A stretch of DNA of 64,000 nucleotides. It comes from Candidatus Dojkabacteria bacterium (GTDB taxonomy: Bacteria > Patescibacteriota > Dojkabacteria > JAOAGR01). The position numbers and the translations under genes were made by a program. The stretch is taken from assembly GCA_025999155.1 (NCBI GenBank), contig AP026679.1, forward strand, positions 400,699 through 464,698, in the 5' to 3' direction. The notes under the pieces are model-generated. The model saw only the letters and a program-made list of their open reading frames with translations, did no database searches and was not told the origin of the DNA. Below, piece by piece: positions 14,430-60,669 of this stretch. How positions within the stretch are numbered: position 1 is the first letter of the stretch; each line of letters begins with the position of its first letter.

Positions 14430-14556
14430 ATTTGGCCTCCATTAGCATCTGATATTGCATTTGATACAGAATTTTACCTTATTTATGTAAATTTATTTAT
14501 CCATTATGAATTTGGCCAAATATACATTTGTGATCTTTCACGCACGTTGTAATAAA

Positions 14557-14604
14557 ATACGCACCCGGTTGGGAATAATCGTAATCCGGTAGGCGTATTT
14601 TTTT
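14557..14604. terminator. hairpin + T-run between hsdS and hsdR (possible bidirectional terminator/attenuator)
   Basis: An imperfect ~10-bp stem 'atacgcacccgg...ccggtaggcgtat' is followed by 'ttttttt' on the + strand. Read on the minus (coding) strand, the hairpin is followed by the weaker U-rich 'tttatt'. Confidence 0.3.
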
Positions 14605-14624
14605 GCGTTCTGGATGAGACATTT

Positions 14625-15932: not shown

Positions 15933-15967
15933 ATTTACAATAGTTCAAAGCTCACTTATACATCTAC

Positions 15968-16262
15968 ATCGCTCCCTTCGACTTCGCTCCCTTCGGCTTC
16001 GCTCAGGGAGCGAGGGGACGGTGGTTGAGCGGAGCCGTCGGTGGTTGAGCGGAGCCGTCGGTGGTTGAGCGGAGCCGTCGGTGGTTGAGCGGAGCCGTCG
16101 GTGGTTGAGCGGAGTCGAAACCACCGACACAATTCAAATTCAAAGACTTCATTCCCTTCGATCTTGCTCCCTTCGACTTCGCTCCCTTCGGCTTCGCTCA
16201 GGGAGCGGGAAGACGGTGGTTGAGTGGAGTCGTCGGTGGTTGAGCGGAGCCGAAACCACCGA
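15968..16262. repeat. GC-rich tandem-repeat island: 15-mer x3, 20-mer 'gtcggtggttgagcggagcc' x5, then a second copy of the module with 20-mer x2
   Basis: Read directly from the sequence. The 15-mer 'gctcccttcg(a/g)cttc' occurs in triplicate and ends in a small hairpin 'cgctcagggagcg'. Five perfect or near-perfect 20-bp tandem units follow at ~16018-16117, ending in the stem-loop 'cggtggtt...aaccaccg'. The whole ~125-170-bp module is duplicated at 16141-16262 with only two 20-mers. GC content is ~60% in a ~33% GC background. Confidence 0.9.
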
Positions 16263-16563
16263 CATAATTCACATGACTACTCTCATTCATACACTTAGCC
16301 AGTTCATGCAATTTTTCAGGCATATTCATTATCAGCGCTTTCTTCTTTTTTCGACTCCATCCTTGTACCTGTTTCTCCCTGTAAAATGCTTCATCTATCC
16401 TGCTGTATTCTTCAAAATAAACTAATTTCACCGGCAAGCGCTTTTTTGTGTAATTCGATCCTTGGCCTGCCTGATGCTGTGCTAATCGTAATTCCAAGTT
16501 AGTTGTACTACCAGTGTAATAGCTACCATCTGCGCATTCCAATATATACATGTATCCTTTCAT
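16198..16563 (-). CDS. GIY-YIG nuclease domain protein (UPF0213/YhbQ-like); C-terminus runs into the repeat island
   Basis: The N-terminus 'MKGYMYILECADGSYYTGSTTNLELRLAQH...' has GIY-YIG motifs (Y..Y..GST, R, E, N). The C-terminal ~30 residues ('VGGFGSAQPPTTPLNHRLPAP') are encoded by the GC-rich repeats. It is inserted between hsdM and hsdS. Confidence 0.65.
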   Translation of the reverse strand: MKGYMYILECADGSYYTGSTTNLELRLAQHQAGQGSNYTKKRLPVKLVYFEEYSRIDEAFYREKQVQGWSRKKKKALIMNMPEKLHELAKCMNESSHVNYVGGFGSAQPPTTPLNHRLPAP

Positions 16564-18128
16564 ATTCCCAATCTTTCAATAATATTTTTTAATTTGCTAT
16601 TAATATCTACAGCTTCCATTTCTAACTCTTTTATCTCTTCCCATATCTCCTCGATTGGACGGTACTCTTCCTCCTCGCTAATGTGAATATAACGGCTCGG
16701 TGATATGTTGTAATCGTTTCTAACTATCTCTTCTTTAGCCACTATTTTGCTAAACTTATCAATCTCTTTCCAACCTAAAAATGTAGAAGTAATCTTTTCT
16801 ATTCCTTCATCAGTAATGTAGTTTTTTGGCGTACCTTTCGCAAACTCCTGCGAAGCATTGACTAAAAGCATCTTATTTTTGCGATCAGCAGGTTTATTTT
16901 TATTCAAAAAAATCACTATACCTGGCGCTGTTGTGTTGTAAAACAAATTTTCAGGTAGATACAAAACCCCTTCTATATAATCATTCTCGACAAACCACTT
17001 GCGTACTTGTTTTTCTTTGTTGGTATTTGCATTCCCAGATCCACGGCTTGCTGCACCAGTATCTAAAACAACAGCGGCTTTTCCCTCTTCCTTTAAACTT
17101 GCCAAAATATGCTGCATCCAACCCCAATCAGCACTTTGTTTACCAGGGAATCCAGCGCCATTCGGAAAGCGACCAAAGGTATCTGCATCATAATCCCTTT
17201 CATCAAACATATCCTGATTCCACATCGGATTGGCAACGACTCGATCAAAAGTCACTAAACGATTATTTTCGCGAAACTTGGGATTGCGAAAAGTATCGCC
17301 AATCTCTATGTGCCCCTCCATATCGTGGATAATCATATTCATATTTGCCATTGCCCATGTTTGAGGAACAAATTCCTGTCCATAAAGCTTAAGGGGTTGA
17401 AATTTTTTAATCTTTTTTGCTTTCATTTTCTCATTCAAAACAATTTGGCACTTGATGAGAAGCCCTGCAGAACCACAGCAAGGGTCATAAATCCACATAC
17501 CAGGCTCAGGGTCCATGATTTTTGCCATGATTAAACCAACTTCTTTGGGAGTATAGAATTCTCCAGCACTTTGACCGCCACCTTCGGCAAATTTTCGAAT
17601 CAGGTATTCATAGCTACGGCCAATGATGTCCGGTTCAACATCATCAAGCCCAAGCCTCTTTTGACTTATTTTTTCAATTAAATTAGACAGGCGGTCATCA
17701 TCAATATCCCGCACTCCGTGGGTGGTGGCGTTAAAATCTATGCGATCAATAATGCCCGAAAGTCTAGGATTTTCTCTCGCTATATCACGCAAATGAGATG
17801 TAAGTTTTTCTCCGATTTTATCGGTAAGTTTACGGATAACAGACCAAACAGGTTCTTCGGGATTTTCGGGTCTAAAAGGTATATAAAAACGAACTAGTTT
17901 TTTATCACGATCTACCAGTTCAAAAGCCTTTGCTCGCGAACCAACTTCTTTAGCAAATCTGTCGATTTCATCGTCAAATACATCACAAAGCCTTTTTACA
18001 AAGATTAAAGGTAAAATAAAATCTTTATACTTGCTAGCATCCTGAGCGCCTCGAATGCTACAAGCAGCATCCCATATCCATGATTCCATTGATTTGTTTA
18101 ATTCATTGTTTTTAGATTCTTTTGTCAT
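16560..18128 (-). CDS. hsdM: type I R-M N6-adenine DNA methyltransferase subunit
   Basis: It has the HsdM N-terminal helical domain, the SAM motif 'DPCCGSAGLL' and the catalytic motif 'ANPMW' (an NPPF/W variant). Its stop overlaps the GIY-YIG ORF start by 4 nt. Confidence 0.85.
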   Translation of the reverse strand: MTKESKNNELNKSMESWIWDAACSIRGAQDASKYKDFILPLIFVKRLCDVFDDEIDRFAKEVGSRAKAFELVDRDKKLVRFYIPFRPENPEEPVWSVIRKLTDKIGEKLTSHLRDIARENPRLSGIIDRIDFNATTHGVRDIDDDRLSNLIEKISQKRLGLDDVEPDIIGRSYEYLIRKFAEGGGQSAGEFYTPKEVGLIMAKIMDPEPGMWIYDPCCGSAGLLIKCQIVLNEKMKAKKIKKFQPLKLYGQEFVPQTWAMANMNMIIHDMEGHIEIGDTFRNPKFRENNRLVTFDRVVANPMWNQDMFDERDYDADTFGRFPNGAGFPGKQSADWGWMQHILASLKEEGKAAVVLDTGAASRGSGNANTNKEKQVRKWFVENDYIEGVLYLPENLFYNTTAPGIVIFLNKNKPADRKNKMLLVNASQEFAKGTPKNYITDEGIEKITSTFLGWKEIDKFSKIVAKEEIVRNDYNISPSRYIHISEEEEYRPIEEIWEEIKELEMEAVDINSKLKNIIERLGI

Positions 18129-32859: not shown

Positions 32860-35418
32860 TCAGCACTCCCCCCACACCCTATCAATTACTTTTTTGATTT
32901 TTTCTTCGTAGGTTTTGATCATTTCTCGAAGGCTGTCTATCACCCTCCGCTCGGCTTCGATTTTTTCGACAATACACTGCTGGATGTCAAGTGGCGGAAG
33001 GGGGATTTGATATTCCTGTATAAAAAAAGCTGGTACTCTCTGTAATCCACCTGTACCTGTCATCATTTTAGCCCCTTCTTTTATGAATCTATTAGACGAA
33101 ATATACGGATAAATGTATTCAGAAACAATTTTTTCTTTAATTGGTCTTAAAACATGAAGTTCACTTGAACCAAAGCCTATTCCATTTTTTAAATTACGTG
33201 CAATTCCGGACTTACCATTTTCAAAACAAGGAGTAACTTTGGCAACTAAAACGTCGTTTTCTTTGAAATTTGTATAACCTTTGTATACTTCTGAAAGTTT
33301 TTTTTCTTTTTTAGGTATAATATCCTGTACTGTACCAATATCTTCCATAGGTAAAAATGAAACGGTTATGTCGTCATTAAGGTTGGCAACCTCAGATTTT
33401 TTTGGATTTATCTCACACACCTCCCCCAACCTCACCATGGGCCAGCCGTTGGCTAATTCTTCTTTTTTTTCGGGATGTTGGGCAAGGTAGTTTTTTAATT
33501 CTTCTTCGAGATAGGTTTCTATATCAGGCTTCCAGGCATCTATCACCTGCCTGCAGCCGTCGATAAGCTTCTGATAGCCTTCTATCTCTGCCACTATCTC
33601 CTGCTGCACTTCAAGGGGTGGGAGGGGGATTTGAATTTCAATAAAATCTGATGTTGGTATAGTTCTTCTGCGGTTGGCTGTCCCTATCATTTTTGACTTA
33701 TAAATTTTTCGTGCTTGTTTAGAACGAAATATTATTTCCAAATAAGGGATGTAACTATCAGTTTCTTTTTTTAACTTCCAAATGTTGTATGCAGGACTTA
33801 CAGCTGCAACTTCATATTTTGTTTGAAAACCAAGGACACCTTCATCAATAGGAAAGCCAACCACTAATTCATTTTTAAAAACTTTTTTATAGTTCTGAGT
33901 GTTTTTGCTTGCTATACGTTTTTTAAACTTTTCTTCTTGATCGATCAGCCCTTTGTACATAGTAATAGACATAATTGGCAAATTCTCATTGCCAGCTCTG
34001 TCCTTTCCAGATAATTCTATAACTTCCCCCAGCTTCACCATCGGCCATTTTTGGTGTTTGCGTTTTTCTACCACTCTATATCTATCGCCGGTGAGGTTGT
34101 ATTCGCCGTTTTCGGCAAGTGTTGATTTTTTGACGAGTAGGGGACTACATGGCTTATTTTCTAGCGTGAATTCGTCTACTTTATTCTTTCTAACAGCATT
34201 TTTATACTCCAAAATGACTTGTAAAGCATCAGGTAAATCATTCTTATCGATAGGACGGCGTTGTGCTCCTAAATCATAACCATCATTCTCAACCTTGATA
34301 AATAATATGCTGTCAGTTTTCCTCGCCAAATCCTTATCTATCAATAAAATCGAAGTCTTGACCCCCGAATAAGGCAAAAAAACCCCAGCCGGTAACGAAA
34401 CTACCGCATATAGATTAGCATCCTCTACTAATCTTTTTCTAAGTTGCTTGTATGCTTTAGCACTTTGGAAAATAATCCCTTCCGGTACTACTATTCCTGC
34501 CCTGCCATTGTAAATGCTCAAATGATCAATTATATAATCAACAAACAAAACCTCTGCTCGTTTTGACTGAATAGAAAAACGACTATGTGGCATTATGCCC
34601 CCTTTAGGAGTCATAAATGGTGGATTAGCCAAAATAACGTTAAAATTATCATCCCATCTGTCAGTACTACTCAGAGTGTCATACTCGTATATGTGAGGTT
34701 CACGAATATCATGCAAAAACATGTTCACAAGCGATATTCTCACCATATCAGGCGAAATATCATAACCAACAAGATTATCAGTCAATCTATCCCTTTCCGA
34801 AGGACTAAGAGGAGTATCCTTATTTTGATCCAAAATATATTTATACGCAGAAATCAAAAAACCAGCAGTACCACAAGCAGGATCGCAGATCTTATCGTTT
34901 TTAGTTGGTTCTACAGCATGTACTATAAAATCAATAATATGCCTCGGCGTACGAAATTGCCCAGCTCCACCTTGTGCAGCCATCACCGACAAAAGGTATT
35001 CATAAGCATCTCCCAGGTCTTCACTATGCTCGTATTCGAATTCATCAATGACCTTTAGGAATAAATTCAAAGTCTCAGGACTATTAAATGACAAAAAAGC
35101 ACCTCTAAAAATATCCCTAAAAATTTGTTCAATATTGGGATTTAATGACATTTTCTCCAGGGCTTCCTTGTATAATTTCAGCCTGTTTTCACCTCCTAGA
35201 CCCGGATCCATAAGCTTACTCCATGCATATTTCTCGTACTCCCCACGAAAAAACGTCCTTTGACCACCCATTGCCTCAGACTTGCTGTCCATATAATCCA
35301 TAAATTTATAAATCAAAGCTAGCGTGATCTGCTCCACTTGGGCCTTTGGATCAGGTATTTTGCCTACTAGAATATCACGGGCAGTATCTATTCTTCGTTT
35401 TGTCTCTGCATTTAACAT
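32860..35418 (-). CDS. fused type I-like R-M methyltransferase-specificity protein (HsdM domain + two TRDs)
   Basis: The N-terminal ~420 aa carry the HsdM helical N-domain 'IDTARDILVGKIPDP...ALIYKFMD', the SAM motif 'DPACGTAGFLI' and the catalytic motif 'LANPPFMTPKGG'. The C-terminal ~430 aa carry two TRDs, each with an N-box ('WPMVKLGEVIEL', 'WPMVRLGEVCEI') and a conserved HsdS helix ('LPPLEVQQEIVAEIEG', 'LPPLDIQQCIVEKIEAE'). Confidence 0.8.
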   Translation of the reverse strand: MLNAETKRRIDTARDILVGKIPDPKAQVEQITLALIYKFMDYMDSKSEAMGGQRTFFRGEYEKYAWSKLMDPGLGGENRLKLYKEALEKMSLNPNIEQIFRDIFRGAFLSFNSPETLNLFLKVIDEFEYEHSEDLGDAYEYLLSVMAAQGGAGQFRTPRHIIDFIVHAVEPTKNDKICDPACGTAGFLISAYKYILDQNKDTPLSPSERDRLTDNLVGYDISPDMVRISLVNMFLHDIREPHIYEYDTLSSTDRWDDNFNVILANPPFMTPKGGIMPHSRFSIQSKRAEVLFVDYIIDHLSIYNGRAGIVVPEGIIFQSAKAYKQLRKRLVEDANLYAVVSLPAGVFLPYSGVKTSILLIDKDLARKTDSILFIKVENDGYDLGAQRRPIDKNDLPDALQVILEYKNAVRKNKVDEFTLENKPCSPLLVKKSTLAENGEYNLTGDRYRVVEKRKHQKWPMVKLGEVIELSGKDRAGNENLPIMSITMYKGLIDQEEKFKKRIASKNTQNYKKVFKNELVVGFPIDEGVLGFQTKYEVAAVSPAYNIWKLKKETDSYIPYLEIIFRSKQARKIYKSKMIGTANRRRTIPTSDFIEIQIPLPPLEVQQEIVAEIEGYQKLIDGCRQVIDAWKPDIETYLEEELKNYLAQHPEKKEELANGWPMVRLGEVCEINPKKSEVANLNDDITVSFLPMEDIGTVQDIIPKKEKKLSEVYKGYTNFKENDVLVAKVTPCFENGKSGIARNLKNGIGFGSSELHVLRPIKEKIVSEYIYPYISSNRFIKEGAKMMTGTGGLQRVPAFFIQEYQIPLPPLDIQQCIVEKIEAERRVIDSLREMIKTYEEKIKKVIDRVWGEC

Positions 35419-35430
35419 AGATTCATAAAT

Positions 35431-37911
35431 CTACACAAAAGCATTCAGATCAATATTTTTACGGATAAAATCAACAACCAAGTCCAAAATTGTTTGTAGA
35501 TTTTCGATATCTTCAAGAGATAATTTAGGATTGGTACAAAGCCTGGAATACTGCTTACTATCGATAATATCACGAATATCTCCATCAGTAACATATATCT
35601 CAATAAAATCCCTCAATAGTTTCCTATCGACATCAGGATTATGAGCATTTAAAAATTTAGTAAAAACCTCGTCTATCAAATCATCCTTTGTCTTAATCTT
35701 AGGAATACGACCGAGAATATAGCCAATTATTTCCTTCACCGAAACCTTTCTATTCACATCTAAAGCCTTAGCTAATTTATCCAAATTAAAGTAATATTCT
35801 GGTTTATTAAATAAATTCTGATCTACATACTCTTCTAACTTATCATACTCCTGATCCTCATAAAGCCTATTGATAATAGGATCAATCTTCACATCATCAG
35901 CAAATCTATCAAAAAACTTCCTATCTATCTTCATACCTTCGGCACCAATATGCGTTTTGGTAATAGTTTTGATTGGATCAGGAATAGATATGGTTACCTC
36001 ATCGATACTTATAGATTTAGTCTCGTCCGGTGAGTCTATCCTCTCACTTGATATCGGTAATTTCAAAACCCGATCATAATCAAATTTCTCCTCAAAATAC
36101 TCACAATTAGCAAAGAAATCAAAAAGATAAAATTCTTTCTTGTCTATCTTGATTTCTTGGCCATTTTCATCGGTATAGGAAAAAGTATGTGTACGCGTAC
36201 CACGCCCTTTGATCTGAATAAAATCAGTAGGTGAAAAAATCGGCCTCATCAGACAAATATTCAAAATATCCTGACAATCATATCCCGTCGTCATCATATT
36301 GACTGTCACACATACGCGTGTCTTGCTTGATTTGTAGCCTTCTTTGAATTTTGTCACACCATTGAGATTATTATTAGCAAATTTCTGTGCATAGCTTTGT
36401 GCATCATGAATATTCGATGTTACTTGTACCGCAAAATCAGAATTATACATTCCTGGCCAATATTGATCAGCTAAGTGATTGAGAATAGCTGTAATCTTTG
36501 ATGCATGATTTTGACTCACACAAAATACCAGAGTCTTGCCAATTTCCCCGCTTATCGGATCTCTCAAAGCATTATCCAAAAAAGCCTTACAAAAAGCGTT
36601 ATTTGTCTCTCTTGAGAAAAATCTTTTCTCAAAATCCTTTGAAAAAAAGACTTTTTCACTTTCATCTCCTTCCTCAGTACGTACTACCGTAGCATAGCCC
36701 TGATCAGAGAGTAATTGTGTAGTGATATGAGTTCTAGCATCATATACGACTGGATTGATTAGGTAGCCATCTTTGACTCCATCTATCAAACTATAGCGAA
36801 ATGTAGGTTCGCCCGATGGACATCCAAATGTATTATAAGTATCCAATAATTGACGACGTTCAAAAGCCCTAGGATCTTCTTGACTTAATTTCTCAATGTC
36901 TACATTCCTTAGATAATCTCTAGGTGTAGCAGTAAGTCCTAACTTATACCCAATGAAATATTCAAATACATCACGACTATTGCCCGAAATCGATCTATGC
37001 GCCTCATCCGAAATCACTAATTGAAAATCATGGGGAAGAAATAATCTACGATACCTATTATCCTTCAATAAACTCTGAACCGTAGTGACCACAATATCAG
37101 CGCTATTCCAAACATCACGATTCTCTTTATAAATCACTACCCTGAAATCTTTTTTGAGTAATTGAACAAAACTTTGATATGCCTGATTTTCTAATTCTAT
37201 CCTGTCCACTAAAAAAAGTACCCTTATGGCATTTCTAGTTTTTAAAAATAGTTTAATGATAGCCGCAGATAATAGAGTCTTACCTGTACCCGTCGCCATC
37301 TCCAATAAAAACCTTGTCTTACCTTCTTTTACAGCTTGTTGGATAGCATGGATAGCCTTGAGTTGGTAATGTCTGAGAAATTTTAGTTGATTATCTTTGA
37401 TAAATTTTTGCCTTGTAGATTCATCTAGCCACTCAGGATGACTCTTATAATCACTTATCTGAGTCAAGACTACAAAATCACTTTCGACTTTTTCACTAGC
37501 TAAGGCATCAAAATCAAATTTGTACTCTTTGACTCCTTCTATTGATTTTAAAGAAGGAAATTTCTCGATCTGTACAGGATTACCATGGTTCAAATCCCAG
37601 AAATAATGAGTTTCACCATTGGACAAAATTACATAATTTACACCCATGGCCCATGCATATTCACGGGCTTGTTCTTTAGCATCCAAAGGATCTTTATGAG
37701 CAGCCTTCGCCTCAATAACTATGATTGGAGATTGATTATCATCAAGAAGTACATAATCTATAAACCGTACTCCTGATCCATCTCCAGTATTTATATGTAC
37801 TGTAACTTCAGTTCTGACATTTGCTCTCTTGCCATTGGTATTTTCTAGCATCCAACCGGCCTCTTCCAGTAATTTGTTGATTTTCAACCTGGCATCAGAT
37901 TCTTTTGGCAT
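35431..37911 (-). CDS. type I-like restriction subunit: N-terminal PD-(D/E)xK (HSDR_N/Mrr-like) nuclease + SF2 DEAH helicase
   Basis: The N-terminus 'RFIDYVLLDD...IIVIEAKAAHKD' is a D...EAK nuclease core. Helicase motif I 'LEMATGTGKTL', motif II 'VISDEAHRS' and motif VI-like 'QIKGRGTR' follow. It lies 12 nt upstream of the fused MS gene on the same strand. Confidence 0.75.
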   Translation of the reverse strand: MPKESDARLKINKLLEEAGWMLENTNGKRANVRTEVTVHINTGDGSGVRFIDYVLLDDNQSPIIVIEAKAAHKDPLDAKEQAREYAWAMGVNYVILSNGETHYFWDLNHGNPVQIEKFPSLKSIEGVKEYKFDFDALASEKVESDFVVLTQISDYKSHPEWLDESTRQKFIKDNQLKFLRHYQLKAIHAIQQAVKEGKTRFLLEMATGTGKTLLSAAIIKLFLKTRNAIRVLFLVDRIELENQAYQSFVQLLKKDFRVVIYKENRDVWNSADIVVTTVQSLLKDNRYRRLFLPHDFQLVISDEAHRSISGNSRDVFEYFIGYKLGLTATPRDYLRNVDIEKLSQEDPRAFERRQLLDTYNTFGCPSGEPTFRYSLIDGVKDGYLINPVVYDARTHITTQLLSDQGYATVVRTEEGDESEKVFFSKDFEKRFFSRETNNAFCKAFLDNALRDPISGEIGKTLVFCVSQNHASKITAILNHLADQYWPGMYNSDFAVQVTSNIHDAQSYAQKFANNNLNGVTKFKEGYKSSKTRVCVTVNMMTTGYDCQDILNICLMRPIFSPTDFIQIKGRGTRTHTFSYTDENGQEIKIDKKEFYLFDFFANCEYFEEKFDYDRVLKLPISSERIDSPDETKSISIDEVTISIPDPIKTITKTHIGAEGMKIDRKFFDRFADDVKIDPIINRLYEDQEYDKLEEYVDQNLFNKPEYYFNLDKLAKALDVNRKVSVKEIIGYILGRIPKIKTKDDLIDEVFTKFLNAHNPDVDRKLLRDFIEIYVTDGDIRDIIDSKQYSRLCTNPKLSLEDIENLQTILDLVVDFIRKNIDLNAFV

Positions 37912-38063: not shown

Positions 38064-38537
38064 TTATTCGGATTTGATAGTTATTTGCTTTGGCTTATTC
38101 TGGGCAACCTTTGGTAGTTTCAATTCTAAAACACCGTTTTTCATCTTAGCTTCAATCTTTTCTACGTCTACATCTCCCGGCAATGTAAATGTCTGCTCAA
38201 AATAAGTCTCTAATCTATTCAAATAATATTGTCTGCCTTCTTCAGACTTTTCTTCCTCTTTCTTACCGCCTTTGATTCTGACTACATTGCCCTCGACTTG
38301 TACATCTACATTATCTTTATCAACTCCAGGTAATGCCATTTTGATGAAATAATTTTCATCTTCTTCCCAGACATCAGCCATCGCCATATTGTAATTAAAA
38401 CTAGGCATCAGTGATCTATTAAATACATCATCAAACCATGACTGCATGGATAATAATTCATCCAACATATTCCTTAGAGGTGAATATGCTGGGTTTGTTA
38501 ATGATCTTTTATTATTGTTTATTCTCATTATTCTCAT
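38064..38537 (-). CDS. Hsp20/alpha-crystallin small heat-shock protein (start reassigned to SD-proximal ATG)
   Basis: The alpha-crystallin domain reads '...FIKMALPGVDKDNVDVQVEGNVVRIKG...GVLELKLPK'. A strong RBS 'AAGGAGGG' sits 7 nt upstream of the ATG at 38537 (protein MRIMRINNN...). The ORF-track start at 38654 adds an unlikely hydrophobic leader. Confidence 0.75.
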   Translation of the reverse strand: MRIMRINNNKRSLTNPAYSPLRNMLDELLSMQSWFDDVFNRSLMPSFNYNMAMADVWEEDENYFIKMALPGVDKDNVDVQVEGNVVRIKGGKKEEEKSEEGRQYYLNRLETYFEQTFTLPGDVDVEKIEAKMKNGVLELKLPKVAQNKPKQITIKSE

Positions 38538-38632
38538 AGTTCCCTCCTTTTTAAATAAAGATAAAATTTTTATAAATAAACCAAAAACTAATTTAAATAC
38601 ACTAAAAATATTAATATAAAGGCCAGATGGCC

Positions 38633-38677
38633 ATGCTGGATAGTAATCCAGCATACTAGATCATTTATGCAATGATC
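38633..38677. promoter_or_regulatory. two adjacent palindromes in the Hsp20 / 617-aa-ORF divergent region (candidate operator)
   Basis: 'ATGCTGGAT-AGTA-ATCCAGCAT' (perfect 9-bp arms, 38633-38654) is followed by 'GATCATttatgcaATGATC' (38659-38677), ~95 nt upstream of the Hsp20 start. It matches neither CIRCE nor HAIR consensus. Confidence 0.3.
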
Positions 38678-38878
38678 TATTCAGTTATTTACTTTTAGAG
38701 ATATTTGTGTGCTAGATGAATCCTAAAACCTTCAACATTTTTCGTATTAGGATCATCGTGCATTAGCAGTCTAACACTATGCCTGCTAATTGTCAATACC
38801 CTCTACCATCTGCTAATTATTTTAATTGATAGTCCAGATTTAATTAGAAGTTTATGAAAATTTTGTGTATGCTTAAAC

Positions 38879-40732
38879 GTGGAAAATTTCGTATATGCTG
38901 AAGAACTAGAACTCAGTGTTGTAGAACATAGACTCATTACATTATTTGAATTAATGGAAAAACACGGAGTGAAGGTTTTTTATCCTGCACTAATCTTTAA
39001 TGAGACTTTCTGGCTACTTCCCATCCAAAAGCGCATAAACATAATCGAACACAATCAAAAAGAGTGGCTAGATGATTATCCGATACATGATGCATTGTTT
39101 TATTTCGATCCTTTTTACATCGATCTACTAAAGTCTATCCGACTAACATACTTTTCTTACACCCGGATCAGATTCGAACAACTTATTGAGATATTCAAAA
39201 TCAAAAATAAGTACACTATCAATTCTTTCGTAAGCTTCAGCGACTCCAATAATGCACAAAATATCCTAAATGAATTAACCCTAAGAAGCGAAGATTTCAA
39301 ATACTTACCATCACATTCGAAAACATTACTTGGAAAAATATTTGCAATAGATTTTTATGCCCATTACAGAAATAAGAAAAATTACAAATACCTTATTCTT
39401 ACATACAATTTTAGCTTTGATATATGGGAGAGTTTCTTTGAATCGCTTAACAAAATAGCTAGCTCAAAAGATGAAAATATCACAGAAAATGTTGAATTTC
39501 TAATAATTTTTCTATCAAAATTCGGCTATCAACAATTCCATAAAAATCTAGAAAATTACAAAGCCTTATCTAAAGCTATCGAAGCAGGTATTATCAATCA
39601 CGACTATCTGTCAATCGAAGATATTAGTCCAACAAAAAAATATGATTATATTATCTTCGATGAAATACTATCTATAGCGCCAACAGAAATACTCATCAAA
39701 TACGAACGCGAATATTATCATCGTTTTGGCCGTCTGGTATATACTGATAGACAAGACGAAAAAACAGCATTAGATAAAATAACAATAATTCAATCTCAAA
39801 TAACTTCGGAAATAGAACCACAACTAATAAATAATTTGTATTATGAACTTATTTGGCAAAGATATACAAATACTCAACTAACAGATTTCATAGAGAAATG
39901 TATAACGGTATTTGAAAGAGACATGTTTTCCCTCTCTATAATCGGACTACATCTCATAACGGTGATGATCAAACATCTCAAGCATGATGGAAAATTACAA
40001 ATCCTAGATTATTACAATGACAAACCAAAAAACTTACTCTACAACGACAAATACGGATTACTAAGATTTATTGTGAATAGTAACCATTACATAAGTATTC
40101 TATCATCATTTAGTGATATTCAAGCTAACTACCAATTAAAATCGATTGATGATCTATTAAAGGAAGAAGTACTCGAAAATAAAGAAAAAGTATTTTATTT
40201 AGGTGATTTGCTTCATTTCCTACTAGAAGATCATAAACTCTTCAAAGAATTTTTTGATGAAAAAAAATTCACTTTTTACGATAAAATCACTGCTATATCG
40301 AAAAAGTACAAACCTTATTACTTTTTACGTTCAAAGAAGATTTTAACATTTGGATTAGGTACTTTGCTTTACCATATAGGCTACAAAAAGTTTTATAGAG
40401 AATTCAAAACAACAGCTAAATTAGACTTATTGTCTAATGTACCAGAAGCAAAAATATATGAGTCTTATAGCAAAGAAATCATTGTAGATATGGTACCCGT
40501 ATGCATAACAAAATTTAAAGATAATGAAGATTTAATCATATCATTCGATAAGGATTCAAAAATCAACGAGCACATCAAAAAAATTCTACAAGAATCTTAC
40601 ATGAAGATAGACGAATTTTTCGATTTTCTAAATAAATATCAAGACAAAATACTAGAAACTATCAAACAAACTCAATCGCAGCCATATCGCAATTATAAAA
40701 TTCTCATCACTACCAATGTACAAACTCAGTAA
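38879..40732 (+). CDS. large hypothetical cytoplasmic protein (617 aa), GTG start, no recognisable domain
   Basis: The uninterrupted 1.85-kb ORF is K/N/I/Y/F-rich, with no TM segments and no NTP-binding or catalytic motifs I can recognise. Confidence 0.5.
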   Translation: MENFVYAEELELSVVEHRLITLFELMEKHGVKVFYPALIFNETFWLLPIQKRINIIEHNQKEWLDDYPIHDALFYFDPFYIDLLKSIRLTYFSYTRIRFEQLIEIFKIKNKYTINSFVSFSDSNNAQNILNELTLRSEDFKYLPSHSKTLLGKIFAIDFYAHYRNKKNYKYLILTYNFSFDIWESFFESLNKIASSKDENITENVEFLIIFLSKFGYQQFHKNLENYKALSKAIEAGIINHDYLSIEDISPTKKYDYIIFDEILSIAPTEILIKYEREYYHRFGRLVYTDRQDEKTALDKITIIQSQITSEIEPQLINNLYYELIWQRYTNTQLTDFIEKCITVFERDMFSLSIIGLHLITVMIKHLKHDGKLQILDYYNDKPKNLLYNDKYGLLRFIVNSNHYISILSSFSDIQANYQLKSIDDLLKEEVLENKEKVFYLGDLLHFLLEDHKLFKEFFDEKKFTFYDKITAISKKYKPYYFLRSKKILTFGLGTLLYHIGYKKFYREFKTTAKLDLLSNVPEAKIYESYSKEIIVDMVPVCITKFKDNEDLIISFDKDSKINEHIKKILQESYMKIDEFFDFLNKYQDKILETIKQTQSQPYRNYKILITTNVQTQ

Positions 40733-42522
40733 TAACTGATACCAGAAAATGGTCTGAGTGAAACCATAGAGATGAATAAGAAAACACAAACGCCGATTAA
40801 CACAGATGTGTACACAAAGACTAGATACCTCGAAATATTAGTTGTAATTTCTAACTGTTTTTTAACTGTAGCTGTGTCAACTAAATTAAACGAAGATGTA
40901 TATTGAGCAGAGACATTTATATCAGCATTTCGTTTCGTGATAGAAATATCACTCTCAAGCTTGATCGGATATCTTATTTTAGACTCTGGTGGTATCAGAA
41001 ATGATGAAATTTCGTCAAAATCAGACCGTAAAGAATCTATGTTAGTTGATATATCTATTTTTGATACTTGAATAATTTGAGATGTATGATTGTGGAATTC
41101 TAATGTCAAATTTTGGTTAAGACTTGAATACGAATCTATTTTTAATTCTAATTTTTTATCGATATCTAACGGTTTATAGACTTGAGTCAATGGTTTAACG
41201 ATAAAGTACGCTTCTTGTTTGAAAAAATCACTTATCTCGCTTTCATCATAATAATGACCAAATTTGATGTGATGATAATTATTATTATCAAAATATATTG
41301 TTCCACCTGAGGATAAATACCAGGCAGGATCAACAACTACCCATTTAGACCCGTCCCAAAATTCCGTCCACACGTGTTGATATGTAATAAAAGTATCTCT
41401 TTTTAAAGGCTGTATAGGAAAGACATAGCCAAAAACCCCCCTAGATTCGATGTCGAATTTCTCCAAAATATTACGATATATATAGTTTAGCTCCACAACA
41501 TTCACATCAAATTTATTTTCGGTGATACTATTAGTTGTAAATGAATTTACTTTGTAATCATTGATTTTAAATCTTTTTAAGACCTGTATATAGATATCTT
41601 TGGCTATATCATATGCTTTCTTATTTTCCTTGTTAATTGTTTTTGCAATCTCATCTAAATAAGTATAATGTCTGTATTTATAAGTATTTTGCTGATGATA
41701 GACATCTTCATCAGAATCGGTAGTTTTAATATAACCTTTTAAGGCAGTATCTTGTTTATTATTTATATAAATGAAATTATTTTCGAATTTGAGAGACTCA
41801 ATGTCTGATCGAAAATTTTCATAATAAACACTCTGATACTTAGTATGATAAGGCAAAAAGATTTTATCAATTTGACTGCCATCTTTTAGTTCAAACTCAT
41901 AATCTGCGTCTCGTCCAATAAGAAATACAATACTAGACTCTAAATTATTTTTTGAATAAAAGTGATAGACATCATATTCTCCATCAGACTCTACATCAGC
42001 ATTACCATATACATAGGCTACATCACCAATACTCTTAGGATATCTGACGGATATATCAAAAGTTATAGAAGGATCATTTTCAGAGAATGTCGGTATAAGA
42101 ATAGCCTTTTGTATGCCGTGATTGATCAATATATCTTTGATTCGAAATGATATTTGCCATTGAAACGTTTTGTTTTGACCAATGACAGGCTCTACAAATT
42201 CAACTACTAATTTATAAATACCAGTATTCGATGACTTATTTAATTGAACTACTTCGATACGTGTAGGAGATTTTGATACGTCAAGCCCCTCAGGTTCGAA
42301 AGGTAAAAGAAACTCGAATTTCTTTAAATAATTATTAGCTACCTGATTACTTGTTACAAATTCATATTTTACATTCGTTGATCCGTTCTCATTGATTTCA
42401 TAAATTGCTTTAATATCATGCTTGAAGTCTACAGCGAAAACCTTGTTATCCTGCAACAAAAAATATACAAAAAGAAATAAAAATAATCCTACAAGCTTGT
42501 ACAAAGAAGAGAAATCTCTCAT
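40726..42522 (-). CDS. secreted/C-terminally anchored protein with transglutaminase-like core (catalytic Cys not apparent)
   Basis: An N-terminal signal/TM helix and a C-terminal TM helix flank a central 'GVFGY...TYQHVWTEFWDGSKWVVVDPAWY' region. That region resembles the His/Asp half of the transglutaminase-like fold, but the usual G-x-C motif is absent. Confidence 0.35.
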   Translation of the reverse strand: MRDFSSLYKLVGLFLFLFVYFLLQDNKVFAVDFKHDIKAIYEINENGSTNVKYEFVTSNQVANNYLKKFEFLLPFEPEGLDVSKSPTRIEVVQLNKSSNTGIYKLVVEFVEPVIGQNKTFQWQISFRIKDILINHGIQKAILIPTFSENDPSITFDISVRYPKSIGDVAYVYGNADVESDGEYDVYHFYSKNNLESSIVFLIGRDADYEFELKDGSQIDKIFLPYHTKYQSVYYENFRSDIESLKFENNFIYINNKQDTALKGYIKTTDSDEDVYHQQNTYKYRHYTYLDEIAKTINKENKKAYDIAKDIYIQVLKRFKINDYKVNSFTTNSITENKFDVNVVELNYIYRNILEKFDIESRGVFGYVFPIQPLKRDTFITYQHVWTEFWDGSKWVVVDPAWYLSSGGTIYFDNNNYHHIKFGHYYDESEISDFFKQEAYFIVKPLTQVYKPLDIDKKLELKIDSYSSLNQNLTLEFHNHTSQIIQVSKIDISTNIDSLRSDFDEISSFLIPPESKIRYPIKLESDISITKRNADINVSAQYTSSFNLVDTATVKKQLEITTNISRYLVFVYTSVLIGVCVFLFISMVSLRPFSGISYY

Positions 42523-43412
42523 ATATACGCTATGAAAATACTTAAAATAACAACAATCGCAATATATTCTAACAAAATCTTGTATGAAAAAGTTCCCTCT
42601 AATTTATGATAAAAAACAGCTGATGCCAGGTAAAAATAAACTACATTTAAAACAGCATTATTATTAACTCCGAAAAAAGGAATCACCATCCCAAAAAAAC
42701 TAACAAATATTGCAAATAACATTGCTATAAACATATTTAGACTGGTAACAAGCCCTTTTTTATATAAATAAAATAACAAGTAAATAAAACTAATTAATGC
42801 ACAAACAAAAAATAGTACTTCTGTCGTAATAAGATTATTCGATTTATAGGATAGAAGAGTCAAATTAACAGTAAAATACGAAAACAATTTAAAAATATGC
42901 ATGACAGTCTCACTTCTGATATAAAATTTTTTATACTTTTTCTGCCTATCATAAACATAAGTAAATTCCAATGGTAAATAGTAAAAATAGAGTAAATGCA
43001 AAATAGATGTAGATATTATCATCACAACAGAAACAAATGGATCTCGATTTATAATCCAATAAAATATCAAAGAAAATAAAGTGAACATAGGATAGCATAA
43101 ATGATTAATTAATAAATCAGAGAGGATATGCTTATAAAAAGATGCAACGTGATTACTTATATATTTGTAAGTAAAATATCCTTCAAATATAAAAACAATT
43201 ACAAAAAAACCTGAAATAACCTGATAATATAACTCATAGAGAGTATAATCTATATTCGCTAATACACTTAATATGATGACAATTACGAGAGTATAAACAA
43301 TAGACCTGAGCAACAACGCTGTAGGTGAGATTTTATCAACGAACTGTTTAGCCCAAGCGGTTTTCAAGTTATTAAAATCGACTAAATGCATAAAAAAAGA
43401 GGGCGACTTCAT
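42519..43412 (-). CDS. hypothetical polytopic membrane protein (translationally coupled to downstream TGase-like gene)
   Basis: It has 8-9 TM helices and its stop overlaps the downstream gene start by 4 nt. Confidence 0.45.
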   Translation of the reverse strand: MKSPSFFMHLVDFNNLKTAWAKQFVDKISPTALLLRSIVYTLVIVIILSVLANIDYTLYELYYQVISGFFVIVFIFEGYFTYKYISNHVASFYKHILSDLLINHLCYPMFTLFSLIFYWIINRDPFVSVVMIISTSILHLLYFYYLPLEFTYVYDRQKKYKKFYIRSETVMHIFKLFSYFTVNLTLLSYKSNNLITTEVLFFVCALISFIYLLFYLYKKGLVTSLNMFIAMLFAIFVSFFGMVIPFFGVNNNAVLNVVYFYLASAVFYHKLEGTFSYKILLEYIAIVVILSIFIAYI

Positions 43413-43920
43413 ATTTCTTAATCAATTTAACATATCTGTAGATTTTATCTATTTTCTATATAAGTATAAAAGTTATCAGTATATTTAGTAGACACTGTGG
43501 AAATTTGTAAAACTGTATTTTAACTCTAATTCTTCAATAATTTGAATGTGTAAAAATCGTAGGATTTATTTTACTCTTTCGTCTGACTTATTACTAGTTT
43601 TACAAGATTTGATAATAAAATTTCCTTTGTATAATAATACGATACTGGGTCTTTTAATAGTAAAACTTTAATTACCTTTCTACATTTTGTTTTACTTGTA
43701 TACATGGTATTTATACGTTCTTATGCTGAATAGAATAAGAAGAACTCATCGTTAATTAATGTCATCTTTTTTACGTACTTTATACACACTCTATCCAAAC
43801 AAAAATTATTGTCTAATAGACTTCTCCACATAAGTGTGTAGTACAAAAATAAATAATTTTTTTTATAGGAAAAAATGGAAATTTATAAATGATAAGATTT
43901 GTGTTACCATAACATTAATT

Positions 43921-46610: not shown

Positions 46611-47552
46611 TTATTTTAAACCTAATATTCTTTTTGCTTCTTCTTCCTGTTGTTTTTGGATCTCATCTAGTAATTTCAAGTTTCTTATGGTTTCGGCTTG
46701 TCTTATATCTTCTATTGTTATATCTGCTGGAATTACACCTTGTTTTTTAAGTTGATCTATAATTTCTGAATATTTTATATCATAATATCTATCTATTTTC
46801 TCTTGTAAAGCCTTAAAATCGTGTAAGGGAATATATATACCTTCCGCCCATCTCATAAACCAATTTTGTTTTTTAGGTGGGGGTTTATAAGGTAGGTGAG
46901 CCTCCATGATCATTTGGATATTTTTTCTGTCTTCTTGAGAGAATAAAATTTGAATTCTTTGGGGTGAAGCCAATATGGTCTCGACATACATCACTTCCTG
47001 ATTTTCTTTGTAGTAATATGCATACTCTAATAATTGTCCCCACGCGTATATCTCTATACTTTCTCCTTCACCTATTTCAATTCCTTGTTTAGTTAACCGA
47101 TAAACAGTATCTTTTGCAGGAACGGAAGCACTCACATATATGGCAAAGAAAAAAGCTAGTACTACAGCGATAAGCATGAATTGTTTTGCAAGTACTCCAA
47201 TAAAAATAATAAACATGATTATGAGCCCTACTGTCCAATACCATTGTTTATCACGTTTTATGCTAAGTCTTGATGGTGCTACCCACTGATAGTAAATATC
47301 CTCTGGCGGGGAAGGGTATAATTCAGGGAATATTAATGCTTTTTTTTCTTGAAAGGTTAGGTTACGATTCTTGATTTGTTTAATAATTGGATTAATGTCC
47401 TTTGGTTTAGGACTACCGGCCATTAAACTATTTGCTTTTTGAAGGCTTGTTCTGTATTGATCTGGATTAATCAATTGTGATTCTATTAGATTCTTAGAGT
47501 AATTATTTACTTCTTCTTCTAATTTCTTTAATTGCTCTTGATAATTTGTCAT
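46611..47552 (-). CDS. hypothetical membrane protein
   Basis: It has a coiled N-terminus, two central TM helices and no motif. Confidence 0.4.
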   Translation of the reverse strand: MTNYQEQLKKLEEEVNNYSKNLIESQLINPDQYRTSLQKANSLMAGSPKPKDINPIIKQIKNRNLTFQEKKALIFPELYPSPPEDIYYQWVAPSRLSIKRDKQWYWTVGLIIMFIIFIGVLAKQFMLIAVVLAFFFAIYVSASVPAKDTVYRLTKQGIEIGEGESIEIYAWGQLLEYAYYYKENQEVMYVETILASPQRIQILFSQEDRKNIQMIMEAHLPYKPPPKKQNWFMRWAEGIYIPLHDFKALQEKIDRYYDIKYSEIIDQLKKQGVIPADITIEDIRQAETIRNLKLLDEIQKQQEEEAKRILGLK

Positions 47553-57036: not shown

Positions 57037-58122
57037 ATGCAAATAGTACAACAAAACGAAATATCTCTAGCTGACATTGTCGCTGTGCTAAGACGAAATG
57101 GGCTTATTATATATCCGTTTGACACTTGTTATGGATTAGTATGTGATCCTACCAATCAAGTTGCCGTTGATAAATTGTTAAAATACAAGGCCCGAAGAGA
57201 AGGTAAGGCTATTTCTGTGACTGTAAAGGATATTGCAATGATAGAAGAGTATGCTGTAATTAATGATACAGCTCGTAATTTTATTCAAAACTTCTTGCCG
57301 GGACCTTTTACTGTCGTTTTACAATCCAGACATAAATTTGCTGATGGAATAGAAGCAGAAAATGGCACAATAGGTATTCGTATCCCCAATTATAGACCTA
57401 TTGTAGATCTGGTTGGTTTGTATGGGTCACCTTTGACATCTACTTCAGCCAATCAAAGCTATCAAAAAACTCCTTACAAAATTTCTGATATTTTGGATTA
57501 TGCAAATAGACGCGATTTAGATTATATAGATCTAATAGTAGATGCTGGTGATCTTCCTAAAAACCCTCCTTCCACGGTTATTGATTTTTCTAACGATAAT
57601 ATTCATGTATTGCGAAAAGGATCAATAATCCCAGAGGGAGCAGACTTTAGTCAACGGGTCTCAAATTCGGTCGCTGACACTATAGCGATCGGCAAAGAAT
57701 TGATGCAAAAATATAGAACAAATCTCCAATATAGACCTGTGATATTTGCCTTACAAGGAGATATGGGAGCAGGGAAAACTCATTTTACTAAAGGATTAGG
57801 ACTAAGCTTAGGAGTCAAAGAAGAAATCAATTCACCAACATTTGTTATTGTAAACGAATATAATTTAGATACAGGAAATAAGTTATATCATATTGATACT
57901 TGGCGGTTAGACATATCTGCTGACTTTCACGAACTAGATGAAATCCAATTTGTTAATATGCTAAGAAAGGAAGGAGATTCATATAATGCCATCTCAATTG
58001 AATGGTCTGATAAAATTGTTGATTATTTGAATAAAATAGATAGCAATATCAAGCTTATATGGGTTGAGATTGTCATCGATTATCAAAGTCCTAATAAACG
58101 AATTATTAAATGGAGTGAGTAA
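57037..58122 (+). CDS. TsaC (YrdC-domain) :: TsaE fusion protein for t6A37 tRNA modification
   Basis: The N-terminal ~200 aa form the YrdC/TsaC domain ('IYPFDTCYGLVCDP', 'LTSTSANQS'). The C-terminal ~150 aa form TsaE ('ALQGDMGAGKTHFTKGLGLSLGV...SPTFVIVNEY...YHIDTWRL'). Confidence 0.7.
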   Translation: MQIVQQNEISLADIVAVLRRNGLIIYPFDTCYGLVCDPTNQVAVDKLLKYKARREGKAISVTVKDIAMIEEYAVINDTARNFIQNFLPGPFTVVLQSRHKFADGIEAENGTIGIRIPNYRPIVDLVGLYGSPLTSTSANQSYQKTPYKISDILDYANRRDLDYIDLIVDAGDLPKNPPSTVIDFSNDNIHVLRKGSIIPEGADFSQRVSNSVADTIAIGKELMQKYRTNLQYRPVIFALQGDMGAGKTHFTKGLGLSLGVKEEINSPTFVIVNEYNLDTGNKLYHIDTWRLDISADFHELDEIQFVNMLRKEGDSYNAISIEWSDKIVDYLNKIDSNIKLIWVEIVIDYQSPNKRIIKWSE

Positions 58123-58857: not shown

Positions 58858-60669
58858 TTAAAGACGGGTTCGTCTGAGTGACAGTCGAATTTCCTCTCCT
58901 TTTCCCTGTGGTGCTGGTGGATCAACTTCTTCTCGGGCAACTGGTAAATCATTTTGAATTAACCATAGAGCAAAAGTATCTGCGATGTTGAGTTGATTAA
59001 GTACGATATAGTGTAACATAGCTTGTACAAATCGGTATTTTCCTATCTTGATAACATTCTCTATGTCCTCACCTAAGGTCCATTTACATCTTTGCCAGTG
59101 ATAAGTGATTTCATTTGGTGCTTTTTCGTCGAAGCCATTTTCTTTCCCATACAAAGAATGCATAAATCTATTTAGAGAATAACCTATAGGAGATACAATA
59201 GCATATTTTAACAACGGGTGCATATCTACAAACATCGTCCAGTCTGGGAGTGCTATGTTATATTGGTTTTCCGCTCTTTTCAGAACATACCTATCCGCGG
59301 GTGTGTAATGTGCGAGGAAGGGGAATTTTTTGAAACCCTGAGTAATAAGTTCTATAAATACAAAAAACTTCAACAAATTTTCCCGTATATCCCTATCACT
59401 AGTACTGTTCGCTGTAAACGTCATCACACGTAATTTCTTTCCTTTTTCTCCTAATTTATTTAGTAATGGGGCAAAAGTATTTTGAAAAATTCCGTGAGGG
59501 GACAGTGTTTGATAAAGTATCGGTAAAGCCATTTTGATCAATTTAAGTCGGTTTACCGTCGCACGCATTGTTTCAAGAGTATTCTTATCCAGTGGGGCAT
59601 GCCTTTGTTTGGTATTTTCGTATAAAATTGCTATGTTTTCGATAATAAAGTTATAAATAACCTGAAGATTTTTTTCTGGTTCGTATGCAATAGATGATAT
59701 TAGGTTTAATTGTCTAGTAATTCTGTGTAACTTCCTTAAATGTTTTTGATGTAGATGAGGGTCAAGATCTTCGTTATATGCGTCCTCAAGTTGTACTAAT
59801 ATGTATTCAAAATATTCTATAAGGGGAGCTCTGTAATTATGATCAAGGTCTTGAAAGTCCACCTTGTCTTTGTCAAGATTATGAGAAGCTATGGATGTTA
59901 TTGTTCGATGTATTTCGCTTATAAAATAGTTAAAAGAGAAAGTAGATGATGAAAGTTTACGTTGTTTTCCATTCTTTGATTGCGAGTCTATTTTATATGG
60001 TACATGTGAATCATTTACAGAGTCTTGTGAAGCATGCGATGAGTTTGATGTAATACCGTACACTTTCTCTAATTGTCCTAATAATACTTTTAATTTTTGT
60101 GATACATCGGTGATGCGACTACTAGGCATTTGCATACTGTTAATTTGAGTCAAATAGTTACTGCCAAGACTATGTATCTCCTTGATTTGGTGTTGGATTT
60201 GGGGGTGAATTGTTTTGTATACAGTCAAATAATTACCTACAATCTGTTCAAAACGTGATGCTAAGGCCTGTATTCTTTGGTCTAAAGGTTCACCTGATCC
60301 CAATGTAGATTCATGCAGTATACCTATATGATAAGGAGGTTGATTAGGTATAAATTCGGTGTCGAAAAATATTATTTCTATTTCATTAGGATCAATACCT
60401 TCTTCATTTGCTATTCGCTCGAGAGCTTCAAATGCGGATGTAACACTGTCTGTTTGTGTCGCAGCTTGTCCCAGAAATAATTCGGCATAATTTATTATCT
60501 GTTGTCCTCTATTTGGTCCTAAAATACTTTTAATCTTCTTTTGTCCTGAAGGTACGGCTTGGATGCCACCAATGCCTACACTTTCTAATCTTTCTGCTGT
60601 AGATTGCCCAACCGAATGAAGTACCGTTAGTGGTGTGTTGCTTTGCCTTGTTAGATTAAGACTGTGCAT
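58858..60669 (-). CDS. hypothetical protein (603 aa) with N-terminal HhH-like segment
   Basis: The N-terminal 'LTVLHSVGQSTAERLESVGIGG' looks helix-hairpin-helix-like. Nothing else is recognisable. Confidence 0.4.
   Translation of the reverse strand: MHSLNLTRQSNTPLTVLHSVGQSTAERLESVGIGGIQAVPSGQKKIKSILGPNRGQQIINYAELFLGQAATQTDSVTSAFEALERIANEEGIDPNEIEIIFFDTEFIPNQPPYHIGILHESTLGSGEPLDQRIQALASRFEQIVGNYLTVYKTIHPQIQHQIKEIHSLGSNYLTQINSMQMPSSRITDVSQKLKVLLGQLEKVYGITSNSSHASQDSVNDSHVPYKIDSQSKNGKQRKLSSSTFSFNYFISEIHRTITSIASHNLDKDKVDFQDLDHNYRAPLIEYFEYILVQLEDAYNEDLDPHLHQKHLRKLHRITRQLNLISSIAYEPEKNLQVIYNFIIENIAILYENTKQRHAPLDKNTLETMRATVNRLKLIKMALPILYQTLSPHGIFQNTFAPLLNKLGEKGKKLRVMTFTANSTSDRDIRENLLKFFVFIELITQGFKKFPFLAHYTPADRYVLKRAENQYNIALPDWTMFVDMHPLLKYAIVSPIGYSLNRFMHSLYGKENGFDEKAPNEITYHWQRCKWTLGEDIENVIKIGKYRFVQAMLHYIVLNQLNIADTFALWLIQNDLPVAREEVDPPAPQGKGEEIRLSLRRTRL

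Follow-up and report, generated by a model that had tools for sequence, protein, structure and literature searches.

The 64,000-nucleotide window analysed here is a stretch of contig AP026679.1 (positions 400,699 to 464,698, forward strand) from the Candidatus Dojkabacteria bacterium assembly GCA_025999155.1. Three adjacent genes at 38879-43412 of this window, encoding proteins of 617, 598 and 297 amino acids (aa), are best read as two lineage-specific core units, arranged tail to tail next to the probable origin of replication, neither of them a defence system. The probability of this reading is put at about 0.5. The first unit would be an envelope operon in which the gene for a protein of about nine transmembrane (TM) segments is translationally coupled to that for a multidomain protein, secreted and anchored at its C-terminus. 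The ectodomain of the latter, the 598-aa protein, may be a ligand-binding or accessory pseudo-enzyme in the manner of erythrocyte protein 4.2. Together with the polytopic partner it would serve attachment or the biogenesis of the envelope or surface. The second unit would be the 617-aa protein of the cytoplasm, whose class I methyltransferase fold resembles COG1565/MidA (NDUFAF7) and lacks the S-adenosylmethionine (SAM) loop. This protein may be a degenerate methyltransferase, one that would bind a macromolecular substrate or act as its chaperone, or an assembly factor, rather than a canonical SAM enzyme.

A first-pass annotation of this DNA had mapped the three open reading frames (ORFs). Their coordinates, strands and lengths were confirmed on the sequence, as were the 7-bp convergent overlap and the translational coupling by an ATGA that it had reported. 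The layout is as follows:

38879-40732, plus strand: 617-aa gene with a GTG start; product predicted to be cytoplasmic, from a small Dojkabacteria-type family
40726-42522, minus strand: 598-aa gene; product predicted to be an exported type I membrane protein
42519-43412, minus strand: 297-aa gene, the first gene of the operon; polytopic membrane protein
40726-40732, both strands: 7-bp convergent overlap of the 617-aa and 598-aa genes, with TAA (40730-40732) ending the plus-strand gene and TGA (40726-40728) ending the minus-strand gene
42519-42522, minus strand: 4-bp ATGA stop/start overlap from the membrane gene to the transglutaminase-like (TGase-like) 598-aa gene, read on the sequence

The ATGA overlap of the membrane and TGase-like genes was also present in the homologous loci L002, L004, L005, L009 and L011 and points to translational coupling of the two genes. 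No terminator-like hairpin was seen at the tail-to-tail junction of the 617-aa and 598-aa genes. In homologous loci the two genes at this junction overlap by as much as 23 bp or lie up to 307 bp apart. The GTG start of the 617-aa gene is probably right as first annotated, since residues 2-25 are conserved among homologues and 8 of the 13 homologues checked likewise start with GTG. The 598-aa and 297-aa proteins were 100% identical to recorded Candidatus Dojkabacteria proteins from bin KatS3mg084. The block is flanked by an Hsp20 gene (PF00011), a type I restriction-modification (R-M) pair and dnaN. The flanks were thus named correctly in the first-pass annotation, and its defence system is the type I R-M pair.

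The order dnaN, membrane gene, TGase-like gene and convergent 617-family gene was found in about ten loci: the window, L002/3, L004, L005/6, L007/8/12, L009, L011, L015, L016 and L017. L002/3 and L004 are close relatives of the window. The others keep the layout although their three proteins are only 21-43% identical to those of the window, and the deep branches L015, L016 and L017 keep it at 21-25%. The far-side neighbour of the 617-family gene varies, being Hsp20, a 330-aa ORF, a member of the p313 family (a conserved 313-aa protein, below), a 349-aa ORF or a 319-aa ORF. The R-M island beside Hsp20 is absent or replaced in L002-L004. As the block is kept and the R-M island is variable, it is the defence island that changes and the block that is lineage-core. 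The three-gene block is a lineage-specific core of Dojkabacteria. The earlier remark that it carries no housekeeping signature does not agree with a block that adjoins dnaN in about ten loci down to such low identity.

The ratio of nonsynonymous to synonymous substitution rates (dN/dS) was 0.135 for the 617 gene. The TGase gene gave 0.19-0.29 and the membrane gene 0.21-0.30; the value for dnaN was 0.05. Values of 0.13-0.30 mark each of the three as a real gene that evolves under purifying selection. The three proteins have diverged faster than the products of neighbouring housekeeping genes, with 30-43% identity compared to 50-70% in the same genome pairs. The faster evolution of the envelope operon fits surface exposure. 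Compared with L004, the TGase, dnaN, Mur ligase, p313, SBP and AAA genes had a dS of about 0.02. It was intermediate for the membrane gene (0.09), 0.31 for the 617 gene and 0.43 for the Hsp20 gene. The jump from about 0.02 to 0.31-0.43 points to a recombination breakpoint at the tail-to-tail junction of the 617 and TGase genes. Diversifying selection on the 617-aa protein was considered, given its 91% identity to L004 compared to 99% for the neighbours, and was rejected because dN/dS stays at 0.135 and it is dS that jumps.

The block had also been offered as an uncharacterised defence module. An anti-phage defence or conflict module attached to the adjacent R-M island would agree with the position of the block near the type I R-M pair and with the faster evolution of its proteins relative to neighbouring housekeeping genes. 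However, none of the three proteins had a PADLOC match at E <= 1, and none contains a nuclease, NTPase or other effector domain. The block keeps its place by dnaN across lineages while the R-M island does not, and dN/dS is well below 1. A defence role is highly improbable on these grounds.

The 598-aa protein matched PF01841 (Transglut_core) at residues 292-399 with an E value of 7e-7 and 29.9 bits, compared to a gathering cut-off of 23. A PF01841 match is precomputed for most of its homologues too. The AlphaFold2 model, made with 10 homologues, had a predicted local distance difference test (pLDDT) score of 83 and a predicted template modelling (pTM) score of 0.75. The model consists of an N-terminal hydrophobic helix, a beta-rich region (33-270), an alpha/beta core (287-445), a beta-sandwich (458-559) and a helix (563-588), and the core has the transglutaminase/papain-like fold. 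Bacterial PF01841 proteins used for comparison were those of Cytophaga hutchinsonii (3isr) and the periplasmic domain of Pseudomonas aeruginosa TgpA (6g49/6g4h). The features of the 598-aa protein, all on the minus strand, are:

aa 1-30: predicted signal peptide; hydrophobic N-terminus with a cleavage-like site between VFA and V
aa 33-270: beta-sandwich domains, from the model
aa 287-445, 41188-41664: Cys-less transglutaminase/papain-like core, from hhalign to the 3isr and TgpA cores and from the model
41497-41499: Val342 codon, at the nucleophile position in the hhalign register
41374-41376: His383 codon, aligned with the catalytic His, invariant
41329-41331: Asp398 codon, aligned with the catalytic Asp, invariant
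aa 458-559: immunoglobulin (Ig)-like beta-sandwich, from the model
aa 563-588, 40759-40836: predicted C-terminal TM anchor, carrying the sole Cys, C579

On hhalign to the 3isr and TgpA cores, H383 fell on the catalytic His and D398 on the catalytic Asp, and both were invariant in 10 sequences. The catalytic Cys at the start of the core helix is absent. The hhalign register to 3isr, with the alignment extended gap-free along model helix 342-354, puts Val342 in its place. Column 342 is V, P or I across the family. The only cysteine of the protein, C579, lies inside the TM anchor and the ectodomain is Cys-free. With Val342 at the nucleophile position the 598-aa protein cannot be a thiol transglutaminase or protease. 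The first-pass annotation had seen the His/Asp half of a TGase-like fold without its catalytic Cys, and PF01841, the model and hhalign all bear this out; the fold is present in the predicted structure. Its description of the protein as exported and C-terminally anchored agrees with the predicted signal and TM helix 563-588. The envelope or cell-surface role that it proposed for the operon is reasonable given the fold, the export, the anchor and the coupling to a polytopic protein.

The residues around the predicted cleft are conserved far beyond the rest of the protein. N341, E344, N346, R361, H383, E387, D390, D398, S405, D412, H417 and H418 are near-invariant there at about 30% overall identity, and N341, E344, N346, R361, H417 and H418 are, with the His and Asp above, invariant in the core. 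The conserved strings of the cleft are RGVFGYVFPIQP, HVWTEFWDG, DP, YFD and HH. This pattern of conservation clearly points to the cleft as a functional site. Such a site could belong to an active envelope hydrolase or transferase that uses His383 and Asp398 together with another nucleophile or an activated water, for example on peptidoglycan stem peptides. The near-invariant cleft would suit an enzyme of this kind, as would the Mur ligase gene close by and the structural neighbours of the model, which include PeiW and LapG. PeiW is active on both peptidoglycan and pseudomurein, and LapG is a protease. However, the family has Val, Ile or Pro at position 342, and to our knowledge all characterised members of the transglutaminase/papain-like fold use a Cys nucleophile. 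An active 598-aa enzyme is considered unlikely, and an accessory or ligand-binding pseudo-enzyme is preferred.

The 598-aa protein differs from TgpA and 3isr in more than Val342 in place of Cys. The polytopic partner is encoded as a protein of its own, with translational coupling, instead of an N-terminal DUF3488-type domain. The 598-aa protein also carries additional beta-sandwich domains at its N-terminus and an Ig-like domain at its C-terminus, and the family is restricted to Dojkabacteria-type genomes. Erythrocyte protein 4.2 (7tvz_E) is a catalytically dead transglutaminase-fold protein. There is no detectable sequence relationship between the two; the 598-aa protein keeps the His, the Asp and a highly conserved cleft, and it is bacterial and predicted to be extracytoplasmic and TM-anchored. 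Fold searches showed that the N-terminal sandwich of the model resembles Ost1/ribophorin I and the M1 aminopeptidase N-domain, and that the C-terminal sandwich resembles generic Ig-like modules. The likeness to Ost1/ribophorin I (6c26_1, 6s7o_E) and PIG-T (7w72_T), which are non-catalytic lumenal subunits found in membrane enzyme complexes, is that of a generic beta-sandwich only. There was no sequence relationship to these proteins, and nothing marks the 9-TM partner as a glycosyltransferase or transamidase. No match came from searching PDB sequences with a profile of the 598-aa family, and phmmer of the isolated TGase core against PDB gave chance matches only. A literature search on DUF5656, TglA and transglutaminase-like proteins from the candidate phyla radiation (CPR) found nothing relevant.

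The 297-aa protein has about nine TM segments based on family-averaged hydropathy, which supports the nine first described. The K/R-rich loops 1-30, 83-103, 151-168 and 219-220 are all on one side, and by the positive-inside rule this suggests an N-in/C-out topology. Invariant polar residues of the family lie at the membrane boundaries (R36, E77, N103-H104, K175, H269-K270 and E282-Y283). The family is small and lineage-restricted. The window protein had no match in Pfam, NCBIfam or PADLOC scans, and a profile search of PDB sequences with the family found no relative. The L009 homologue had a sub-threshold match to DUF5656 (PF18900) which spans nearly the whole profile (E 0.0084, 15.9 bits compared to a cut-off of 23.3). 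DUF5656 was not matched by the window protein or by other family members.

The 617-aa protein had no Pfam, NCBIfam or PADLOC match, and no signal peptide or TM helix was predicted in it. It had been called an orphan. When 1.84 billion representative proteins were searched exhaustively with a profile, it instead fell in a conserved family of 22 clusters at 50% identity, and nothing else was recovered. Nearly all members are full-length, at about 600-676 aa, and two are 240-aa C-terminal fragments. A Pfam scan of all 23 members gave scattered single-member noise only. PF02636 was matched by one of the 23 with an E value of 0.058. Weak hints from profile comparison with PDB sequences were the TehB and PMT2 methyltransferases (E 0.09). 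The AlphaFold2 model, made with 23 sequences, was confident (pLDDT 90.1, pTM 0.86). Its best structural matches were COG1565/MidA methyltransferases, and Foldseek, as an independent search, likewise ranked that family within its top six, with E values from 6e-9 to 1e-7. The model has the overall COG1565/MidA fold, a class I methyltransferase core with family-specific extensions, and helical parts are added at the N- and C-termini beyond this core. The statement that the protein has no recognisable domain thus stands at the sequence level and fails structurally, where a COG1565/MidA-like methyltransferase fold is clear. The features of the protein, all on the plus strand, are:

about aa 166-425, 39374-40153: Rossmann-like methyltransferase-fold core, from DSSP of the model
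aa 169-175 (YKYLILT): beta1 of the core, followed by the loop Y176-N177-F178-S179 where GxGxG is expected
D256 and P268 around beta4, and G371-x5-D377-Y378: other conserved features of the core, from the alignment
38984-39013: P36-x4-N41-E42-x-F44-W45 (FYPALIFNETFW), the most conserved motif of the family, with P36, N41, E42 and W45 invariant in 23 sequences

The invariant residues of the family are P36, N41, E42, W45, N131 and R285. The Gly-rich SAM loop after beta1 was absent in 23 of 23 members and the loop is variable. The acidic residue at the end of beta2 was not conserved among the 23. Known COG1565 sequences (COG1565/DUF185/MidA/NDUFAF7; PF02636, Methyltransf_28; 5ztz, 1zkd, 4f3n/4g67) have an invariant E73-G75-G77-G79 (E-x-G-x-G-x-G). 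The counterpart in the 617 family, T175-YNFS-F180 in the window, is without conserved Gly in all 23. The 617-aa protein shares the fold of these proteins and is about 220-250 residues longer, with the extra N- and C-terminal helical regions. The family was not significantly similar to three COG1565 sequences taken from PDB alignments (hhalign probability 0.6%). By eye, FNETFW (N41-E42) and G371-x5-D377-Y378 resemble the COG1565 T-x-PE and G-AALII-DYG, and the family keeps a Pro after beta4 and a KYDYI-type beta4; these likenesses are leads only, as hhalign was not significant. Judged on the predicted structure and these comparisons, the 617-aa protein is not filed as a COG1565/MidA member, as the fold is shared and the sequence and cofactor-motif tests failed. 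Complex I, the client known for NDUFAF7, is presumably not to be expected in this organism.

In three basal branches of the 617-family tree (L001, L010 and L014) the gene is directly upstream of the 23S rRNA, co-oriented with it and not beside the TGase pair. In each, it lies 150-270 bp upstream of an unlinked 23S rRNA:

L001, 10001-12304: 617-family gene with 23S rRNA, co-oriented
L010, 199-3090: 617-family gene with 23S rRNA, co-oriented
L014, 6001-8761: 617-family gene with 23S rRNA, co-oriented

In L001 and L014 the 617-family gene has rpmF (L32), divergently oriented, on its other side, and the L010 sequence is too short to show this. This context hints at the ribosome as a possible client. 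It would also suit an active SAM methyltransferase with a non-canonical pocket, whose target could be a protein arginine (as for MidA/NDUFAF7), rRNA or a ribosomal protein. Purifying selection, the COG1565/MidA enzymes as best structural matches, the invariant polar residues and the KYDYI-type beta4 with its following Pro, as in methyltransferases, all favour activity. The missing motifs speak against it: no member has the Gly-rich loop after beta1 (0/23), variable and bulky residues such as the YNFS of the window protein being found there, and the acidic residue that should end beta2 is not conserved. The lack of profile similarity to COG1565 and of any Pfam methyltransferase match for the window protein also counts against an active enzyme. 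Catalysis by the 617-aa protein is held to be doubtful, and a degenerate methyltransferase or assembly factor is preferred.

The first-pass annotation had placed the 617-aa gene in the same module as the TGase pair. This is not secure, given the 23S rRNA context in three basal lineages and the breakpoint at the junction. If all three genes formed one trans-envelope module, the cytoplasmic MidA-like protein would have the anchored pseudo-transglutaminase and its 9-TM partner as targets of its action or signalling, for example by modifying a cytoplasmic loop or tail or by loading a substrate for export. Such a module would explain why convergent adjacency is kept in about ten loci, including L015, L016 and L017, though the far-side gene changes, and the three proteins evolve at similar, faster-than-housekeeping rates. 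However, the genes are convergent and hence not co-transcribed, and the recombination breakpoint parts the 617 gene from the TGase gene. In the three basal lineages the 617-family gene sits upstream of the 23S rRNA instead, with rpmF on its other side in L001 and L014. As dnaN is equally syntenic, the pattern is accounted for just as well if gene order round the origin of a compact genome is passively conserved. A single module is therefore only a tentative alternative to two separate units. Rather improbable is its most specific form, a Dojkabacteria-specific trans-envelope machine at the origin in which the cytoplasmic SAM-loop-less MidA-like protein, the 9-TM protein with its conserved charged residues and the extracellular Cys-less TGase-fold protein build or remodel a host-attachment surface. 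If such a machine were real, the 617 family would be a new repurposed branch of the NDUFAF7/MidA 'assembly-factor methyltransferase' fold.

Several points weigh against two separate, non-enzymatic units. Conservation around the TGase cleft exceeds the need of a simple scaffold and could mean a non-thiol catalytic site. The invariant polar residues N41, E42, N131, R285, D256, E323 and D377 of the 617 family could make up a cofactor site of a non-canonical kind. The 617 and TGase genes stay convergent neighbours down to 21-25% identity while the outer flank changes, and the units may be linked. The COG1565 residue equivalences (G-x5-DY, the Pro after beta4, and NE compared to PE) were drawn by eye with no significant hhalign similarity.

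The region between the block and dnaN (43413-43920) is a 508-bp AT-rich intergenic region upstream of dnaN. It lies at the cumulative GC-skew minimum (about 44-46 kb) and this location makes it the probable oriC. No dnaA was found beside dnaN or among the large ORFs of the window. Only two DnaA boxes, with one mismatch each, were present in the region (43780 and 43822). In the window as a whole DnaA boxes were not enriched, with 25 found compared to 22 expected. The 617-aa protein was considered as a DnaA substitute and rejected: it has no AAA+ or DNA-binding features, its gene is two genes from the origin region, and in other lineages the gene is by rRNA. The longest dnaN ORF (GTG at 43834, 410 aa, to 45066) is probably over-extended. 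Relatives are 380-387 aa, and a start at ATG 43921 gives 381 aa.

On the other side of the block a CIRCE-like (controlling inverted repeat of chaperone expression) inverted repeat, TTAGCAGTC-N9-GCCTGCTAA, was found at 38763-38789. It is the only one in the window and is kept in L002 and L004. A minus-strand promoter, TTGACA-17-TAGACT at 38796-38768, overlaps the repeat; promoter scanning is uninformative in the AT-rich DNA of this window. The arrangement suggests HrcA-type control of the Hsp20 gene rather than the 617-aa gene. Regulation of the 617-aa gene by the repeat was rejected, as the repeat overlaps a minus-strand promoter and more likely serves Hsp20. The longest Hsp20 ORF (38064-38654) encodes 196 aa. 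Relatives are 153-160 aa and the true start is probably an internal Met near 38534. A perfect inverted repeat, TAGATCATT-N5-AATGATCTA, was found at 38657-38679.

The window contains two type I R-M systems. The first has a fused HsdM-HsdS (32860-35418) and an HsdR-like helicase (35431-37911), and the second is a classical HsdR/HsdS/HsdM set (11508-18128). The fused HsdM-HsdS system is a variable island, missing at the site in L002/L003 and replaced by other genes in L004. The p313 gene (46611-47552) adjoins the Mur ligase gene and its 313-aa product is 59-62% identical across lineages. It had weak DUF7088/DUF2207_C hints only, and in L007/L012 the homologue has moved directly upstream of the 617-family gene. 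A large ORF on the minus strand (58858-60669) encodes 603 aa with no Pfam match. A 361-aa protein (57037-58122) fuses a Sua5/YciO/YrdC (TsaC-type) domain and a TsaE domain. TsaC-type and TsaE domains both belong to the N6-threonylcarbamoyladenosine (t6A) tRNA-modification pathway.

The genomes of CPR bacteria are tiny, and no function is assigned to a large share of their conserved genes. Folds are now assigned to two lineage-core families of this kind: a Cys-less, surface-anchored transglutaminase fold and a SAM-loop-less MidA/NDUFAF7-like methyltransferase fold. The three genes are core rather than defence cargo. Both proteins are lineage-restricted variants of known folds without the hallmark catalytic or cofactor motif, and do not make up a novel type of system. 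Should the envelope pair serve surface biogenesis or contact with a host, it would give a handle on the interaction of Dojkabacteria with their hosts. Should the 617-aa protein be a ribosome or envelope assembly factor, the MidA-type fold would gain a role, non-enzymatic or non-canonical, in bacteria lacking complex I.

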